A DNA stretch of 12,134 bases from the NCBI GenBank assembly GCA_048884785.1, contig JBHLQM010000038.1, positions 21,037 to 33,170 of the forward strand, written 5' to 3'. Positions 1-9,551 of this stretch are shown here, piece after piece. Under the pieces are notes generated by a model. The model saw nothing but the letters and a program-made list of their open reading frames with translations, did not search any database and was not told the DNA's origin. This DNA is from Candidatus Thorarchaeota archaeon (GTDB lineage: Archaea > Asgardarchaeota > Thorarchaeia > Thorarchaeales > Thorarchaeaceae). Made by a program: the position numbers and the translations under genes. Within the stretch, counting starts at the first letter, position 1; each line of letters begins with the position of its first letter.

Positions 1-153
1 AGACTTCTATTGAATCCTGATCTGCTCTCTGAGATTGGGAGAAATGCCCGAAGAACTGTTGAATCCAATTTCAGTCTACAGAAACACAACCAAAGGCTCA
101 TGGCACTCTACACAGAGCTGATTCGCTCTAAGTCATCAAAAGAAATAGTGTAG
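1..153 (+). CDS. C-terminal fragment of probable GT-B/GT4-family glycosyltransferase (partial, 5' end outside window)
   Basis: Frame +1 is open from base 1 to TAG at 151-153: RLLLNPDLLSEIGRNARRTVESNFSLQKHNQRLMALYTELIRSKSSKEIV*. This resembles the typical GT4 C-terminal pattern 'll.dp.l...lg.nar..v...fs......l..ly..l'. Confidence 0.65.
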   Translation, partial: RLLLNPDLLSEIGRNARRTVESNFSLQKHNQRLMALYTELIRSKSSKEIV

Positions 154-794: not shown

Positions 795-806
795 ACTTCT
801 TCCACC

Positions 807-2435
807 TCACATAATTACGAGTTGGTATGTACCGGGATTAAGAGTGAGTATGTAGTTGCTTCCTACAGCAACAAGATCACCCAGACTTATACCGGCGGCA
901 TAGGCTGTGGGAGTTTCATCAAAATTGCTGAATGTGAGAGTGGCATGTTCATCAACCTGTATATTCAGGATGAAGGCATCTTTCTCGGCATCCCACTCTG
1001 CCTGATAGACCCAGATTTTTTCGTCATCCGCTGCACTAATGTACGGATAATCCCAAAACTCAGATGGACGGGCACTGGCCATTTCTTTCACGGTGACAGG
1101 AAGTGTGCTCCATACCGAAAATCCGCCAACAACTGGGGCTAAGAAGGGCTCCAATGATGATGTGTCGTAATGCATCATTCGGCCATCTTGAGACCAGACC
1201 TTATTGTAAAGGTCCTGTAGAAAATTCAATACACGATCCCGGGTAGCATAATCGCCCCTCTGATTTGCCAAGACTGTCGTGAATACATTTGCAAGCATCC
1301 CGTTGACATCCCCAAATACTGATGGATTCCGGTACGAGCCCATCATGTACATCACGTCGTTGGAGAGGTCCTTGCCATAGATGTCGATGAAATCTGAGTA
1401 TCTGGGTATGATTTTGTCAGGGATTGTATATTCAAGAAAGGTTAACGCCCATGCTAGTCCATACCCATTCACCCTTGGGAGACCTAGCTGCCGATTGAGA
1501 GCGGGTCCAGGGTATTGTTGTGGTTGTGTTTCGGGGAAGGGGGTGAGTCCCATGGGCTCTTGGACAAAGTAGCCATCAATGAATAGTCCATGCTCATCTG
1601 TCATTTCAGATTCAATAAAATCTAGACCAAAATCCCAAAGACCTGTTTCCATCCAACTTTCGTTGTACAAATTATCATACAGCTCAGTTGTAAAGATAGG
1701 GATGCTATTACACTGAGCGAATACAATATACGGCTCACAGGGAATGAGTCCTGCACCCCATATTCCACCCTCTTTTGGATTTGAAAATCCATCTGTCGTC
1801 AGTGAGTTGTTCCAGTCTTCAATGAACCAAGTGACCTCATCGGTCATTTCGCTGGTGTGGAAGTTTCTCTCATAGAGAAGCATCATCAATGCATAATGGC
1901 CTGTCCACATGATATTGGCTGGCCCACGAAAGCCACCAGTATAGAGATCGTCTTCGTTTGGATGGGTTGCGTTTGGATAGTAGTAGTCACGAAACTGGTA
2001 GTTATCCCACTCAATGTGCTCAATGGAATCATTACCATATTCAGCATTAGTTGTATTCATGCTCTTGATAAGAGAGTAGACAAAATTCCGGTACTGTTCA
2101 GTACGATAGCCTGATGTTACTTCAAACATCGATTCAAACACATAACTCGTGAATGCTAACATGTAATGTAGAGTCCCTCGGTACCTATTGGCGTTCCACC
2201 CTTCAAAATCATTGTAGGAACTTCCTACAACGAAGTCATTGAAATAGTTGAAAATGGCTAGTTGTTCCTTCGTCAAAGACTTGTAGTCAGAGAAATCATA
2301 GATGACTCCGTTGATTACTTGCCTGCCAGAAGGTGCAGTGGCTCCAGGCAAATTACTGAATGTCATACCACCAAGGATGATGGCAAATGTCAGCGATACT
2401 AGAATGAATTTGTTGGCTTTTGCGGAAATTCCCAT
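807..2435 (-). CDS. Exported linalool dehydratase/isomerase (LinD/Ldi)-family protein with C-terminal beta-rich extension
   Basis: N-terminal signal/anchor (KANKFILVSLTFAIILGG). Motifs FEGW...HYMLAFTSY, NIMWTGHYALMMLLYE and IPCEPYIVFAQCNS...LYDNLY match, as recalled, Castellaniella LinD FEAW...KYSIAFYAY, NIMYKGHLNLMYGLYQ and IVCEPDNYFVQCNS...VYDRLH. Several N-x-S/T sequons (NTT, NDS, NAT, NNS, NES). Confidence 0.85.
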   Translation of the reverse strand: MGISAKANKFILVSLTFAIILGGMTFSNLPGATAPSGRQVINGVIYDFSDYKSLTKEQLAIFNYFNDFVVGSSYNDFEGWNANRYRGTLHYMLAFTSYVFESMFEVTSGYRTEQYRNFVYSLIKSMNTTNAEYGNDSIEHIEWDNYQFRDYYYPNATHPNEDDLYTGGFRGPANIMWTGHYALMMLLYERNFHTSEMTDEVTWFIEDWNNSLTTDGFSNPKEGGIWGAGLIPCEPYIVFAQCNSIPIFTTELYDNLYNESWMETGLWDFGLDFIESEMTDEHGLFIDGYFVQEPMGLTPFPETQPQQYPGPALNRQLGLPRVNGYGLAWALTFLEYTIPDKIIPRYSDFIDIYGKDLSNDVMYMMGSYRNPSVFGDVNGMLANVFTTVLANQRGDYATRDRVLNFLQDLYNKVWSQDGRMMHYDTSSLEPFLAPVVGGFSVWSTLPVTVKEMASARPSEFWDYPYISAADDEKIWVYQAEWDAEKDAFILNIQVDEHATLTFSNFDETPTAYAAGISLGDLVAVGSNYILTLNPGTYQLVIM

Positions 2436-2564
2436 GCTGAAAGACTCAACTCCGAGGAATTGACTCCGACATGACTTGCGTACCTAGTTATATAGCTTCC
2501 ATTAGGATTACCTGCAATGCAAACGAGACCATGGTCTGTGGTTAGACAGGTTCCGAATTCGGAA

Positions 2565-2594: not shown

Positions 2595-2759
2595 TTACAA
2601 CAATACAATCGCTGCAACGAAGCTCACAGCATAAACAAGATGAATCAGTATGAGGGTCATTCTTGTAAGCTGGATACCTCTTCTTCGGACTAATTCGCCG
2701 CCAAGCCAGCACGTAATAATCGATGCAAGAAATAGGGCTCCAATCATTGAAATATCCAT
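2595..2759 (-). CDS. Small 54-aa two-TM membrane protein (not in the ORF track)
   Basis: ATG at 2759-2757 to TAA at 2597-2595: MDISMIGALFLASIITCWLGGELVRRRGIQLTRMTLILIHLVYAVSFVAAIVLL*. GGAGG RBS at 2772-2768, 8 nt upstream. Starts 3 nt after the upstream stop. Two hydrophobic helices, and it shares a CWL-x20-HxxY motif with the upstream gene. Confidence 0.75.
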   Translation of the reverse strand: MDISMIGALFLASIITCWLGGELVRRRGIQLTRMTLILIHLVYAVSFVAAIVLL

Positions 2760-2762
2760 AGA

Positions 2763-3026
2763 TTAGCCCTCCCATGCTTCGATTGCCTTAATGCGACGGG
2801 CCGAGCGGTAGTATACTACAAATAGTATCCCTAGGTATGAAACGTGAAATACCGCCCATACATAGTCAGACACCGATTGCACAAAATCCGGCAATGCCGC
2901 TGGAACCAGCCAACAGAGAAACAGCGAGAAAAGCAGCACAAGGACTAGCTTTTTCCTAATGCTTCGTCCATTGTAATGGTCCGGAACGACCGGAATTGAT
3001 TTAGAAAGACTTTGATTTTCCATCAT
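2763..3026 (-). CDS. Small 87-aa two-TM membrane protein
   Basis: Two hydrophobic helices (LVLVLLFSLFLCWLVPAAL; VWAVFHVSYLGILFVVYY) flanked by basic residues (RSIRKK; RSARRIK). First gene of the cluster divergent from the Lrp regulator. Confidence 0.75.
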   Translation of the reverse strand: MMENQSLSKSIPVVPDHYNGRSIRKKLVLVLLFSLFLCWLVPAALPDFVQSVSDYVWAVFHVSYLGILFVVYYRSARRIKAIEAWEG

Positions 3027-3166: not shown

Positions 3167-4099
3167 ATGGACTCCTTCGATCGGATTCTCTTGGCTGAAT
3201 TGGCTGCTAACTGCCGTGTGTCCTTCACTGACTTGGCAGAGAAATACAGTTTTTCTGTTAATACAATCAAGAAGAAGGTAGAAGACCTGGTTCAAGAAGG
3301 TGTGATTCATGCCTTTGATGTTCAAATTTCGCTTCGGTCAGTCGGAGCCAGTTTCGCGGTGACCATGATAGAATTAAATTCCGATTGGTCTGGAGACCGT
3401 CTGAAAGAACTCGGAAAACATCCGAATATCTACAGTATTGCGTCAGGAATACGGTCAGAAGCATTGGTCCTAGTAATCTATCGAAGCAATCAGGAGCTCA
3501 CTGAAGTTGTTGACTTCCTCCAGTCTACTCCAGGAGTCTCGAAGACCGAAACAGTCCCTTTGCTGTATCCCCTTTCAGCAGGTGAAATGCCTCCATCGAA
3601 GGGTCTTGAGGATCTAAAGAGAATTGACTGGATGATCTTGCAGAAATTGAAATGGAATGGACGAATGCAACTTGGAGAATTGGCCAACGTTGTTGGAGCC
3701 TCACCTGCCAGCGTACGAAAACGCCTTCAGTTTATGCTGAAAAATGGTCTAATCAATCAGACTATTCTTGTCAATCCGAGCTTGACCAAAGGATTGGTAG
3801 TAATGTATGCTCTCAGTATAGAAGAGTTATCTTCCGAGATTCAGCATCGTCTAGATTTGCTACTTGCAGAAACGTTTCCAGACAATTATTGGTTGAGTTG
3901 GAGAGTTGCAGACCGATCGCTTTTACTCTTGACATTTCAGGTTCAGAGCACAAAGGATGCTCTTGAAATCAGAGATAGATTATTGGAACTTATACCAGAT
4001 TCATCCATAGCAAAACAGCTCCTGGTTGGTGTGTGGGAGTATTTTCCGGACTTCCGAGATGATTTGATTGCTTCCCGTTTAGAATCATACAAGAAATGA
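3167..4099 (+). CDS. Tandem (double HTH + RAM-like) Lrp/AsnC-family transcriptional regulator
   Basis: Two AsnC-type wHTH units (MDSFDRILLAELAANCRVSFTDLAEKYSFSVNTIKKKVEDLVQEGVI; LKRIDWMILQKLKWNGRMQLGELANVVGASPASVRKRLQFMLKNGLI), each followed by a beta-alpha-beta ligand-binding-like domain. RBS AGGTGA upstream. Confidence 0.9.
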   Translation: MDSFDRILLAELAANCRVSFTDLAEKYSFSVNTIKKKVEDLVQEGVIHAFDVQISLRSVGASFAVTMIELNSDWSGDRLKELGKHPNIYSIASGIRSEALVLVIYRSNQELTEVVDFLQSTPGVSKTETVPLLYPLSAGEMPPSKGLEDLKRIDWMILQKLKWNGRMQLGELANVVGASPASVRKRLQFMLKNGLINQTILVNPSLTKGLVVMYALSIEELSSEIQHRLDLLLAETFPDNYWLSWRVADRSLLLLTFQVQSTKDALEIRDRLLELIPDSSIAKQLLVGVWEYFPDFRDDLIASRLESYKK

Positions 4100-5938: not shown

Positions 5939-6844
5939 GTGAAATCAGATACACATGAAAATCGGTTCACCATTATCACAGATCCAACTGATGATGAAGT
6001 GCAGAAGTTCCAGAGTGGCTTCGAAGAGGACAATATGCGCAGGACAAATCGTGAATACAATTGTCCTGAAGAATGGCTTAGTCTTATTCTTAGAGATCAT
6101 GATGGAAATATTGTTGGAGGCATAATGACCAGCACTCTGTTTTGGGTTCAGTACCTTGAGGTGCTGTGGGTGGACGAAAGGTATCGAGGGCTTGGCTATG
6201 GAAAGGATCTCATCCTAGAGGCAGAACGGATGGCGAAGGAGAACGGATGCCGAGCATCCCACACCTACACCTTCTCATGGCAAGGAGGTGATTTCTACCA
6301 GGCAGTGGGATATGACCTCATAGCAACTTATGATGGATTTGTAGATGGAGTTAAAGAATACATTCTGATGAAGTCCTTAGACTCCATTAAAGAGGTTCCA
6401 TCTCAAGATACAGACCCCACTCGATTCACAATCTCTAAGGACTCAAGTGAGGAATCACAGCTCGTTGTACGTAGAGGGCTCGGGAGAGATTTCGAGGATA
6501 ATGTCAGCGAGCTGCTAAAGAGATATCCGCATATCAAAATCCAGTTGATTATCAAGAATGAAAAAGAACAAGTGATTGGAGGACTGTGCGGTTATTCACT
6601 GCTTAGGACTGTGAATATCGGAGAATACTGGGTTGATGAGAGGTATCGTGGACAAGGCTATGGGAAAGATCTCTTGATGCTTGCTGAGAAAATTGCCAAA
6701 GAGAATGATTGTATTGCTTTTCAGACGCACTGTTTTTCGTTTCAGGAGATTAACTTCATGAAAAATCAAGGCTTCGCGGTATATGGGCTGTCGGATGCAT
6801 ATCCCAGAGATGTGAAGGAGTATTATCTTATCAAGAGATTATAG
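5939..6844 (+). CDS. Tandem two-domain GNAT N-acetyltransferase
   Basis: Two acetyl-CoA-binding motif A copies: LWVDERYRGLGYGKDLILEAE and YWVDERYRGQGYGKDLLMLAE. Similar C-termini (VKEYILMKSL / VKEYYLIKRL). GTG start. Confidence 0.9.
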   Translation: MKSDTHENRFTIITDPTDDEVQKFQSGFEEDNMRRTNREYNCPEEWLSLILRDHDGNIVGGIMTSTLFWVQYLEVLWVDERYRGLGYGKDLILEAERMAKENGCRASHTYTFSWQGGDFYQAVGYDLIATYDGFVDGVKEYILMKSLDSIKEVPSQDTDPTRFTISKDSSEESQLVVRRGLGRDFEDNVSELLKRYPHIKIQLIIKNEKEQVIGGLCGYSLLRTVNIGEYWVDERYRGQGYGKDLLMLAEKIAKENDCIAFQTHCFSFQEINFMKNQGFAVYGLSDAYPRDVKEYYLIKRL

Positions 6845-6898: not shown

Positions 6899-7852
6899 TC
6901 AAATGAATTCGATATTCTTTGTAGCGTTCTCAACATATCTCCTCTTTTCGCCATACTGTCTTGATGACTTTATCAGAAATAATCCCACAATGAAGAGCAA
7001 TGGAAACGGAAGAAACATCATGAAGAAGAGAAAAAGAAACATTGAAAACGCTAATCCTGACACAAGACTAACTATCCCTATTAGAATGGTTGTGGTTTCT
7101 TTTGCCAAGCCCCTTGTGTACATCCAGACTTTATAGGCAAAAACAAAACCCGGGATATAGATAATTGAAAAAAATATTAGAAACCCTACGGGATATATTA
7201 GAAACCAGAACTCGAAGTCTAAGCCATAAGACAAATAGAACATCCAAGTTGGTGCGTGTAAGGAAAAGGTTGACCAAGAAAATGCGATGTTTTGAGGAGA
7301 AAACAGAGCTAGATAGAGCATAATCAGTCCTGTTCGACTTGATTCGTTGCTAGTGCGTACTTGAGATTTCGATTCTTGGTACCAAATATCAGCTCTTTCA
7401 TACTCTTTACGCTCAAGTTCCCATCTAACATAAGGAATCAAAACAAAGGCCATGAAAACTGGATAAGTCACTGAAATGCCAGTATAAACGGCCATAGTGA
7501 GTATTCCAAAAGCTGGAAAAAACACTATTGCAGCAATGTGGAGAAAGAATATCAACAAGGATGCTACGATTGCCTTATCAGATAGTGGAGTATAATGTGG
7601 TGTCTGATCCTTGAAATACAGGAATACAAAGCAAGGAAGACTTGTCAAAACAAAAAGAATGACTAGGGGAAGGGATGGCACCACAATTAAACCGGAATGT
7701 GGTTCGTAGTTAGAGAACGACCAGAGAATTGATTCTAACCCCCTGACCCCTGATTCAGGAGAAATGTCAAGGAAGAAGCTGTATGGAATTATCATCAGTG
7801 CGATATACAGAAGTATTCTCTTAATCCACCGCCTTATTACTCCATCCTCCAC
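6899..7852 (-). CDS. Hypothetical polytopic membrane protein with internal two-fold repeat
   Basis: About 7-8 hydrophobic segments in two blocks separated by a hydrophilic linker (ELERKEYERAD...SSRTG). Start codon uncertain: the GTG overlaps the upstream gene by 32 nt. Confidence 0.75.
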   Translation of the reverse strand: MEDGVIRRWIKRILLYIALMIIPYSFFLDISPESGVRGLESILWSFSNYEPHSGLIVVPSLPLVILFVLTSLPCFVFLYFKDQTPHYTPLSDKAIVASLLIFFLHIAAIVFFPAFGILTMAVYTGISVTYPVFMAFVLIPYVRWELERKEYERADIWYQESKSQVRTSNESSRTGLIMLYLALFSPQNIAFSWSTFSLHAPTWMFYLSYGLDFEFWFLIYPVGFLIFFSIIYIPGFVFAYKVWMYTRGLAKETTTILIGIVSLVSGLAFSMFLFLFFMMFLPFPLLFIVGLFLIKSSRQYGEKRRYVENATKNIEFI

Positions 7853-9551
7853 AGGTTTTCCCTCTTTCTCGAATAGTCATCATTCTGATTCTCCTTTTGA
7901 GCAGGATAGAGATTGTTATGACTGATACTCCCACTAGAGCACAGATAATGACTATATGTATTTGAAAAGGCGTGACACTACCGTTTGGGAGAATACTTGG
8001 ATAGTGGTCTATGCTAGTCCATTCAATCTCATATACTCCTATTCCATAGTAATCGCTCCAACTGTTCCCAACGCTTGAACCGTCATCCCAAGAGTTAAAG
8101 CGGCCATAATCAATGGCGTTTGAATACCCATTCCAACCTATGCTATTGTTGTAGATTCGATTGTATGCAGCAAACCCTTCGTAATATCCATACCATGGAT
8201 ATTCAATAAGAACACCTGTGGAATTGTTATACGTGATCGTGTTATTGTATACGAAGCAGTGTGACCCAAAGATATTGATCCCAACATAGTTTCGTGTTAT
8301 AGTGTTACCAATTGAAGTCGAATTATCAGAAAGGTAGAGCCCTGTCCAAAGGTTCCCTCTGATAATAGAACGAATTACAGTTTCGCTGCTGGAATTATAA
8401 GTGGGATTTATGCCATTGTGCAGATTATCTTCAATGACACAATCCACAGCTGTGAAGAATGGAGAGAATGCTAGAGATACTCCGTTGCCCGAGCAACTAA
8501 CGACATGGCACGCTCGAAGAGTAATACCGGTGGAGTCCTCAGCATAGACTCCGTTGTAATGACAATGGGTTATGAAGCAATTTTCAAGGGTGATATTAGT
8601 TGAGTCCTGAATATGTACTCCGCCCCAATAGCACTCAGAAACATTGGAGCTTTCAACTGTACAATTGTTACTATGTATAATTTGAATGCCTGTGGAGCAG
8701 TTCTGAAAATCCCCACCACTGATGAGTGTGTCATTGCAGCTCAGAAGGATAGCCTGACCGTACTGAGCAAGGTTCACTTCCGCACTTGATAGGCTTTGAA
8801 AGAAACCAATATCCTTTCCATTTACGAGGTTATTTGTGATATTGTATGGCAGCCTCACAAGCTCTTGGTATGAATAGAAGAGGCTTTGCGGGTAATTCCA
8901 GAACTGCATCTCTAGTCCGCAGTCCGTGAATTCGTTCCCGATAACTGTGACATAAGCTGAAGAATCCAAAATAAGGCCAAGATTATCATTGATGAAGTGA
9001 TTATCCGAAATGATTGTGTTGTTGCATATCTCTAGAGTCAGACCAGTATCACTAGATAGGAATTCGTTCTCACTAACTATGGAATCCCTACAATCACCCA
9101 TCCACAGGGCTTCGGGGAGCTCGGAGCTACTGAACACGTTTTCATTAACAATTACGTTCTCTGAGCTAAGAATATATAACGCAGCAGTTGATGCAAAGCT
9201 ACATTCTTCTATAACCCCATTTGATATCCACTCACAAGCGAGATTTTCAAACGATATGTTGCAGTATCTGATGACGAAGTACGCTGAAGTATTGTGAATG
9301 TATAGACCAAGGTCGATATCCTGATTCTCCAATAGATATGGACTAAATATTGAGCCATTTCCTGAGAAGCCGTACAGCGTGAAGTCGCTATTGTCGCTGA
9401 TTTCAATAGGTGTATCATATCCGTTCCTGTGAACGGATGCTGTTGTCGCCAAAGCGGGCAACTCGAAATAATAAGCCATGGAAGGCAATCCTGGTTGTGC
9501 AAGTCCCAGTAGAACCATGTTCACGAGAAGGAATACGAAAAATCGCTTCAA
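7821..9551 (-). CDS. Secreted right-handed parallel beta-helix (NosD/pectin-lyase-like) surface protein with C-terminal TM anchor
   Basis: Signal peptide MKRFFVFLLVNMVLLGLA; N-cap PIEISDNSDF..GFSGNGS..PYLLEN; about 22-23-aa Asn/Cys-rich repeats; C-cap WDDGSSVGNSWSDY...DHYP; TM followed by KRRIR; many N-glycosylation sequons. TTG start. Confidence 0.88.
   Translation of the reverse strand: MKRFFVFLLVNMVLLGLAQPGLPSMAYYFELPALATTASVHRNGYDTPIEISDNSDFTLYGFSGNGSIFSPYLLENQDIDLGLYIHNTSAYFVIRYCNISFENLACEWISNGVIEECSFASTAALYILSSENVIVNENVFSSSELPEALWMGDCRDSIVSENEFLSSDTGLTLEICNNTIISDNHFINDNLGLILDSSAYVTVIGNEFTDCGLEMQFWNYPQSLFYSYQELVRLPYNITNNLVNGKDIGFFQSLSSAEVNLAQYGQAILLSCNDTLISGGDFQNCSTGIQIIHSNNCTVESSNVSECYWGGVHIQDSTNITLENCFITHCHYNGVYAEDSTGITLRACHVVSCSGNGVSLAFSPFFTAVDCVIEDNLHNGINPTYNSSSETVIRSIIRGNLWTGLYLSDNSTSIGNTITRNYVGINIFGSHCFVYNNTITYNNSTGVLIEYPWYGYYEGFAAYNRIYNNSIGWNGYSNAIDYGRFNSWDDGSSVGNSWSDYYGIGVYEIEWTSIDHYPSILPNGSVTPFQIHIVIICALVGVSVITISILLKRRIRMMTIRERGKTCGGWSNKAVD

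Follow-up and report, generated by a model that had tools for sequence, protein, structure and literature searches.

What would an Asgard archaeon do with a relative of a bacterial enzyme that acts on linalool? The question is raised by a gene of a Candidatus Thorarchaeota archaeon (GenBank assembly GCA_048884785.1, contig JBHLQM010000038.1, positions 21,037 to 33,170). The whole stretch of 12,134 nucleotides (nt) that was analysed is referred to below as the window. On its minus strand, at 807-2435 (stop codon included), lies an open reading frame (ORF) for a 542-amino acid (aa) protein of the Ldi family (PF18566), the family of linalool dehydratase/isomerase (LinD). An earlier note, made from the letters alone, had taken this protein for an archaeal LinD homologue with the catalytic residues retained. 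The Ldi profile match, a LinD-like structural model and the conservation of the residue set all bear this out. What is new is that the Asgard gene forms a strict cassette with a gene for an S component belonging to a transporter of the energy-coupling factor (ECF) type, and that this cassette is confined to a small number of Asgard lineages. The homology as such is no novelty, since the domain annotation already figures in public records: several orthologues are named "linalool dehydratase/isomerase domain-containing protein" by NCBI. Full-text literature searches retrieved no paper in which linalool dehydratase is tied to archaea, and none that connects the Ldi family to ECF transport.

The Thorarchaeote protein has the fold of LinD

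Among the checks that the earlier note had named for its proposal were a search with the Pfam Ldi hidden Markov model (HMM) and a comparison with LinD structures. In the first, the protein scored 55.7 bits (cut-off 26.1, E 7.4e-15), with a best stretch confined to residues 229-293. A profile built from 50 family sequences aligned with LinD at E 1.6e-15, in three blocks across residues 57-406, and a phmmer search of all Protein Data Bank (PDB) sequences returned linalool dehydratase/isomerase chains as the only matches (E ~2e-8). NCBIfam gave no match for the Ldi protein or for its partner described below, and no cofactor-binding domain was detected in the Ldi protein.

For the structural comparison, an AlphaFold2 model of the monomer was built with the 50-sequence alignment (predicted local distance difference test score, pLDDT, 90.9; predicted TM-score, pTM, 0.90). 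In this model residues 28-461 (1053-2354, minus strand) fold into an (alpha/alpha)6 barrel of the LinD type. LinD chains came top in Foldseek (E 1.5e-13, TM-score 0.75-0.81), and VIA-align superposed residues 24-461 of the model on residues 3-366 of LinD with a Z of 39 and a root-mean-square deviation of 2.5 Å over 350 residues of ~363. The runner-up folds, GH105/YteR, cellobiose 2-epimerase and GH76, reached Z 20-21.6. A Z of 39 for LinD as opposed to 21.6 for the next fold indicates that the barrel is specifically LinD-like and not a generic six-hairpin structure. Membership of the Thorarchaeote protein in the Ldi family is thus virtually beyond doubt.

The secondary structural matches bear on another reading, namely that the Ldi label misleads and that the protein belongs with six-hairpin enzymes of the glycoside hydrolase or lyase-like kind, its substrate being a glycan. 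GH105, GH76, GH127, GH88 and cellobiose 2-epimerase barrels are all among these matches, the combination of a barrel with a beta-sandwich resembles the layout of many glycosidases, and Atlas gave weak leads from the C-terminal domain to HepII_C and GH38 C-terminal domains. However, those barrels align at Z ~20-21 with 6-12% identity, against Z 39 for LinD; sequence searches match Ldi only; and the conserved residues are those of LinD, with no glycosidase acid/base pair. We therefore regard a glycan substrate as highly improbable.

The beta-sandwich itself comprises the ~80 C-terminal residues (462-542; 810-1052, minus strand), which form eight strands in the model and fall outside the LinD alignment. 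Atlas finds the same domain C-terminally in long bacterial and fungal proteins that have an Ldi domain (TM-score 0.79-0.83), and many bacterial Ldi proteins of 520-640 aa match the family HMM out to positions 490-540. The sandwich is therefore part of a common long form of the family, of which LinD is the short form, and is no archaeal novelty. Such long proteins occur in Pseudomonadota, Myxococcota, Desulfomonilia, Acidobacteriota, Bacteroidota and others, and all are uncharacterised. They share with the Asgard proteins the motifs NIMYxGH and CEPxxxFxxCN, signal or lipoprotein signals and the C-terminal sandwich, but are only 22-30% identical to them and form a separate clade.

An ECF S component is the constant neighbour of the Asgard Ldi genes

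Twelve nt beyond the TGA stop codon of the Ldi gene begins a second gene of the same strand (177-794), encoding a polytopic membrane protein of 205 aa that was classified, from the Pfam matches of its orthologues and from Atlas, as a PF07155-like ECF-transporter S component. The spacer (795-806, minus strand) contains a GGTGG Shine-Dalgarno-like motif. From the spacing and its conservation, the two genes would form an operon, and a TATA-like box, CTATATAA, read in the sequence 53-60 nt upstream of the Ldi ATG (2488-2495, minus strand), is a possible archaeal promoter for it.

Nine of twelve S orthologues match PF07155 (best E 1.5e-8) and four of the twelve match PF12822. Among 120 database S orthologues listed, about half, counted by eye, carry a precomputed PF07155 assignment, and for several the name given in NCBI/JGI records is "ECF transporter S component". 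Atlas aligned the S protein with S-component clusters at feature scores of 0.93-0.95 and a TM-score of 0.72 over 169-172 residues. The protein has five or six hydrophobic segments, six helices appear in a low-confidence model, and the S consensus shows an AxxxA-like motif in helix 1 that reads A..V in the window copy. A search of the PDB with the S-protein profile gave nothing significant. At the level of the orthologous group, these profile matches clearly identify the partner as an ECF S component.

The remainder of an ECF system is found elsewhere in the same genome. Contig 21 carries two ATP-binding cassette (ABC) ATPase genes followed by a CbiQ/EcfT gene, that is, an EcfA-EcfA'-EcfT cluster; contig 3 carries a CbiM-CbiQ fusion and an ATPase; and three further clear S components are present. 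In its gene content, the genome is arranged as expected for an ECF system of group II, in which the module is shared. The Asgard S proteins resemble those of group II transporters such as RibU and ThiT (PF07155/PF12822) in their length of ~200 aa, their six helices and the location of their gene away from those for EcfAA'T. To our knowledge, known S components work without an extracytoplasmic partner, mostly in vitamin uptake. The Asgard subfamily differs from them in being found essentially only directly downstream of a gene for a putatively exported enzyme.

The strictness of this arrangement was assessed by comparing the places of Ldi and S genes over the same 301 genomes, sampled across 30 families of the Asgard phylum. 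Fifty-three Ldi copies have their 3' end within a contig, and in every one of these cases an S gene comes next on the same strand, the ends of the two matches lying within ~75 nt of each other; the four Ldi copies that have no S gene all end at contig edges. Conversely, members of the S subfamily were found away from Ldi only at contig breaks or as fragments. Inspection of individual loci gave the same picture (S gene beside Ldi in 11 of 11, then in 10 of 10), and tandem duplications copy the whole pair: an Ldi-S-...-Ldi-S arrangement is seen in at least two Thorarchaeota genomes (locus L019, G176:C16, 5373-11297; and G296:C361:7242-11880). No other neighbouring gene is conserved across the Asgard clades. 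By contrast, an S-type gene lies within 6 kb in none of 80 bacterial Ldi loci examined, a set that includes LinD-like short forms and leaves out the loci of LinD and Lis, the latter being a distant family member from Thauera linaloolentis. A functional link between the Ldi protein and the S component is, on these grounds, very likely.

The cassette has a narrow distribution. A total of 214 homologues was found; the 120 that were listed are 449-585 aa long, 51-63% identical, and come nearly all from Candidatus Thorarchaeota metagenome-assembled genomes, while an exhaustive search of 1.8 billion cluster representatives gave 39 matches only. In the genome survey, 42 of 76 genomes of Thorarchaeaceae, the family to which the window belongs, carry the Ldi gene. 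Two other Asgard families have it at 34-37% identity, one in 2 of its 3 genomes and the other in 4 of its 21, and it was found in none of the remaining 27. Six of the 53 paired copies come from those two other families; they belong to a second clade, ~35% identical, with database relatives in Hodarchaeales. The named database relatives of the distant Asgard forms as a whole are Hodarchaeales and Helarchaeota. In a quick FastTree phylogeny, provisional and with SH-like supports only, all Asgard Ldi sequences form one clade (support 98-99) inside a major branch whose other members include a proteobacterial group and the short forms that resemble LinD.

Conservation of the catalytic residues and departures from LinD

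The two motifs that carry the putative catalytic residues were located by script exactly where the earlier note had placed them: NIMWTGH at residues 174-180 (1896-1916) and CEPYIVFAQC at residues 233-242 (1710-1739), both on the minus strand. Its equivalences with LinD likewise hold: M176/H180 correspond to M125/H129 in the 50-sequence profile, and C233/E234/Q241/C242 to C171/E172/Q179/C180 in both that profile and the phmmer alignment. The profile lays N-I-M-W-T-G-H on LinD N123-I124-M125-Y-K-G128-H129. Titles of PDB entries indicate that C171, C180 and M125 were mutated in studies of LinD.

Conservation was counted in 50 orthologues of 52-63% identity. The NIMWTGH motif, with M176 and H180, is invariant, as are C233 and C242; position 234 is E in 42 sequences and Q in 8, and at position 241 Q occurs 43 times, N five times and H twice. 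The motifs persist in Asgard clades at 29-35% identity and in bacterial Ldi proteins at 22-30% identity. Their general forms are NIM[YW]xGH and C-E-P-x5-[QPE]-C-N (residues 233-243 of the Thorarchaeote protein), and the former is invariant in 10 distant members. The single pattern NIMY[STR]GHL sufficed to retrieve 148 bacterial Ldi genes from many phyla. The catalytic set is thus a hallmark of the whole, mostly bacterial, family, and it points to Ldi-type chemistry rather than to linalool.

Features peculiar to LinD fare differently. In LinD, an essential disulfide between C49 and C102 caps the substrate channel (PMC6013536). Such a cap is impossible in the Thorarchaeote protein because its only two cysteines, C233 and C242, are the catalytic pair; N75 and T128 occupy the positions aligned with C49 and C102. 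A further suggestion, made with less certainty in the earlier note, equated D67-F68...Y74 with LinD D39/F40/Y45 and finds little support: position 67 is D in 5 of 50 orthologues and position 74 is Y in 31, D39 falls opposite position 66 (D in 22 of 50 and N in 18; N in the window copy) in an N-terminal alignment that is weak (8.5 bits), and Y45 lies within a LinD-specific insertion of the profile alignment. A LinD-like relative, P0157 (~45-50% identical, estimated by eye), likewise lacks D39 and Y45. LinD is a cyclic homopentamer with its active site at the subunit interface; the Thorarchaeote protein was modelled as a monomer.

Two insertions relative to LinD, which the same note had picked out at 1920-1985 and 1503-1541, are real. 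The first, of ~25 residues, includes residues 151-172 (1920-1985, minus strand) and immediately precedes the NIMWTGH helix; the profile has 54 aa here (119-172) where LinD has 29 (94-122), and the model has a pLDDT of 86-90. The second, of ~22 residues, includes a proline/glutamine-rich loop at 299-311 (1503-1541, minus strand) opposite which LinD shows gaps in the phmmer alignment; profile blocks 280-317 face LinD 217-232 (pLDDT 81-82). That the cap is absent and the insertions are present suggests a substrate size or an access route unlike that of LinD. The accompanying proposal of a glycoprotein finds no statistical backing, as the five N-x-S/T sequons of the protein compare with 4.6 +/- 1.9 in shuffled sequences. 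Only one sequon, N127-T-T, located roughly at LinD C102, is invariant in the 50 core-family orthologues. It reads N-S-[ST] in the distant Asgard sequences aligned, the Helarchaeota representative excepted.

The N-terminus and a predicted extracytoplasmic location

Residues 1-27 (2355-2435, minus strand) have the appearance of an export signal, with an n-region containing K6 and K9, a hydrophobic region of ~15 residues (~10-24), and the sequences T-F-S and N-L-P-G thereafter. The orthologue alignment gives the pattern K-x-N-K-[FY]-h15-G-[ML]-T-F-[GS]-N-L-P-G-P, and the structural alignment opens at residue 24-28, opposite residue 3-7 of mature LinD. LinD is periplasmic and has a Sec signal at the same place (PMC6013536), and the bacterial Ldi relatives have signal or lipoprotein signals. 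For these reasons the Ldi protein is likely to be exported from the Thorarchaeote cell, as the earlier note had supposed. The segment is probably a cleaved Sec signal peptide. Its conservation is unusually high for a signal peptide, for which reason it may possibly be an uncleaved membrane anchor.

The same segment enters into an alternative in which the protein is not an enzyme at all but captures a hydrophobic ligand outside the cell and hands it to the S component, in the manner of an ECF substrate-binding protein. The obligate pairing of the genes would be explained, and a hydrophobic segment followed by an unusually conserved G-x-T-F-G-N-L-P-G-P would suit an anchor holding the protein beside its partner. 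Extracytoplasmic accessory proteins do exist in some Ni/Co ECF systems. Against this, the catalytic cysteines, histidine and methionine do not vary even between clades that are as little as 31% identical, which catalysis explains more easily, and we know of no non-catalytic member of the Ldi family. We find a mere capture role improbable.

The second characterised family member offers a different solution to membrane association. Lis is ~20% identical to LinD. It is membrane-associated and requires reducing conditions; it has four N-terminal transmembrane helices and a predicted cytoplasmic catalytic domain, and its gene, more than 150 bp from its neighbours, was described as isolated (PMC4791888). 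The Asgard protein, unlike Lis, has a single N-terminal hydrophobic segment, a predicted location outside the cell and a separate membrane partner.

A proposed function for the cassette

The interpretation that we favour, by a modest measure over even chances, is that the Ldi protein is an exported thiol acid/base (de)hydratase or isomerase that acts on a hydrophobic allylic alcohol or alkene and is coupled to ECF uptake. The protein would be exported by the Sec route and kept reduced, which would fit an anoxic sediment. With the set C233/C242, H180, M176, E234 and Q241 retained, its most probable action is to donate a proton to an allylic hydroxyl or to an alkene; C233 and C242, together with H180, would do so on a hydrophobic, probably isoprenoid-like substrate, the reaction outside the cell being elimination of water, its addition, or a 1,3-hydroxyl shift. 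The S component would then bind the product, or else the substrate, and bring it into the cell through the shared EcfA-EcfA'-EcfT module encoded elsewhere. The analysis showed the family, the fold, the conserved catalytic residues, the obligate gene pair and the existence of an ECF module; inferred are that the protein is exported, that it catalyses a reaction and does not simply bind a ligand, what kind of substrate it takes, and which way transport runs. Taken separately, LinD-type chemistry by the Ldi protein is reasonably probable, while uptake of the product by the S component falls somewhat short of an even chance.

Several observations weigh against this interpretation. Gene adjacency speaks for a functional link and says nothing of the molecule moved or of the direction of movement. 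ECF S components typically import vitamins and micronutrients, and none that we know of takes a hydrophobic alcohol or alkene as its substrate. The S protein of the window has no Pfam match at E <= 0.01, compares only weakly at profile level with one of the genome's clear S components (hhalign, E 0.006), and gave an AlphaFold2 model (pLDDT 57) too poor for a fold search. As for the Ldi protein, its identity to LinD is ~20%, the cap disulfide is absent with no further cysteine conserved in the family, and the residues D39' and Y45', which LinD draws from the neighbouring subunit, do not appear to be conserved. Finally, LinD and Lis are the only characterised members of the family, Lis being the sole characterised relative of LinD (PMC6013536, PMC4791888).

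The most obvious competitor is a functional LinD orthologue, a catabolic or detoxifying linalool/myrcene/geraniol dehydratase-isomerase serving monoterpene use as in Castellaniella. The LinD of Castellaniella defragrans (EC 4.2.1.127; PDB 5g1u, 5hlr, 5i3t) belongs to the same Pfam family, is the best structural match, has its export signal in the same position, retains the equivalents of the M/H/C/E/Q/C set and has no cofactor-binding domain; the location of the archaeal protein, predicted here to be extracytoplasmic, parallels the periplasmic one of LinD, and in the quick tree the Asgard clade shares a major branch with LinD-like short forms. On the other hand, the host is an archaeon, identity to LinD is ~20%, the Asgard proteins are a separate, well-supported clade, and the retained residues are family-wide, occurring also in ~150 bacterial genes of many phyla. 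The cap disulfide is missing, equivalents of D39/Y45 seem to be so too, and two insertions of ~22-25 residues and an extra beta-sandwich domain are present. The strict pairing with an uptake component, seen in 0/80 bacterial loci (those of LinD and Lis not among them), makes extracellular processing of an oily compound for import more likely than linalool degradation. Linalool is thus unlikely as the physiological substrate, and an orthologue of LinD in the full sense seems to us very improbable.

A more intimate role in the cell is conceivable, with the enzyme acting at the outer face of the membrane on the archaeon's own envelope lipids (unsaturated isoprenoid chains, polyprenol carriers or quinones) and the S-like protein presenting or flipping the lipid. 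LinD chemistry targets isoprenoid allylic systems (PMC6013536), and isoprenoids are what archaeal membranes are built of; an N-terminal helix left uncleaved would keep the barrel near the membrane; and some loci of the second clade adjoin MacB/FtsX or ABC-2/DrrA exporters, or ICMT-like or Rce1-like membrane enzymes. Yet these lipid-type neighbours are not conserved across loci, and absence of the family from ~45% of the sampled Thorarchaeaceae genomes and from 27 of 30 Asgard families is hard to fit with a core lipid role. Moreover, S components are known as importers. We rate this alternative as rather unlikely.

A bolder version of the favoured interpretation is that the cassette is the first enzyme-coupled ECF uptake system, in which an extracellular LinD-type enzyme converts environmental isoprenoid alcohols for a dedicated S component and the products are salvaged for membrane lipids. 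Candidate pairs of tertiary and primary alcohols would be geranyllinalool/geranylgeraniol, nerolidol/farnesol and isophytol/phytol. We advance it as a speculation with a minor chance of being correct; if true, sediment-dwelling Asgard archaea would reuse ready-made isoprenoid chains for their membrane lipids.

Returning to the favoured reading, that of an exported enzyme coupled to uptake, its interest extends beyond Thorarchaeota. Both characterised Ldi enzymes come from monoterpene-degrading Betaproteobacteria, and here the catalytic machinery is seen to be retained in an Asgard branch that is distinct and well conserved; the gene pairing of this branch offers a concrete handle on the physiological role of a large uncharacterised family. 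An exported enzyme feeding an S component may constitute a new mode of ECF transport, and processing and uptake of hydrophobic compounds would be a testable trait for the poorly known physiology of Thorarchaeota and Hodarchaeales. LinD has attracted industrial interest for cofactor-free hydration of alkenes and formation of dienes (PMC6013536), and the Asgard proteins represent new scaffolds for biocatalysis, probably with another substrate size.

Genes surrounding the pair

Peroxiredoxin and Fur-family genes accompany the pair in part of the Thorarchaeota. A gene for a 1-Cys peroxiredoxin (AhpC/TSA) lies just past the S gene in five loci (L018, 4559-5224; L019, 7811-8458; L021, 4013-4702; L022, 4006-4695; L023, 8928-9608), with a Fur-family gene beside it in four; in the tandem arrangement of L019, the Fur-family and peroxiredoxin genes stand between the two Ldi-S copies. 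Atlas also shows fungal proteins in which AhpC-TSA/SCO1-SenC domains are fused to the Ldi domain. The peroxiredoxin neighbour may reflect a redox link to a thiol-dependent enzyme or merely shared synteny.

Exporter-type ABC systems flank the pair among the distant Asgard forms. At L016 (8289-10650) and L017 (2972-5303), a small uncharacterised protein, a MacB/FtsX permease and an ATPase are encoded directly downstream on the same strand. Two other loci (L014, 2304-4907; L015, 7700-10329) have a DrrA-like ATPase gene beside that for a 561-aa protein, for which the L014 copy gives a match to ABC-2 permeases and the L015 copy none in Pfam. Genes for an ICMT/PEMT-family methyltransferase (L014, 8298-9077) and for a Rce1-like protein of the CAAX-protease family (L017, 9156-10034) also lie near the pair, maybe by coincidence. 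In eukaryotes, these two families are tied to prenyl-protein processing.

Within the window, other genes were considered as members of a wider module and set aside. Divergent from the Ldi operon, at 3167-4099 on the plus strand, is the gene for a 310-aa Lrp/AsnC regulator with two winged-helix (HTH_24/AsnC-type) modules; such a regulator adjoins the pair only in one other locus, from a genome of the same genus (L011). Between it and the Ldi gene lie small membrane-protein ORFs (2595-3026, minus strand), one of which, of 87 aa (2763-3026), was sought with tblastn and found in none of 21 other loci, and thus seems to lie outside the cassette. A gene for a CTP-dependent riboflavin kinase ~5 kb away hinted at riboflavin uptake; the kinase is not beside the pair in other loci. 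Rfam found no RNA element in the window.

On the far side of the S gene, the window opens with the end of a GT4 glycosyltransferase gene (1-153, plus strand; L109, 6784-8190) that converges on it. A block consisting of this gene and those for a 406-aa uncharacterised protein and Trm5/TYW2 is shared among Thorarchaeota and not with the distant clade. At 7821-9551 (minus strand) is encoded a 576-aa surface protein of the NosD/right-handed beta-helix type, which has a signal at its N-terminus, numerous sequons and a hydrophobic anchor at its C-terminus. Its gene overlaps by ~30 nt the start of that for a 317-aa polytopic membrane protein without a family match (6899-7852, minus strand), and the two look like a second pair made of a surface protein and a membrane partner. 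Finally, a 301-aa protein with two tandem GNAT acetyltransferase domains is encoded at 5939-6844 on the plus strand, next to genes for an M29 aminopeptidase and a DinB_2 protein.

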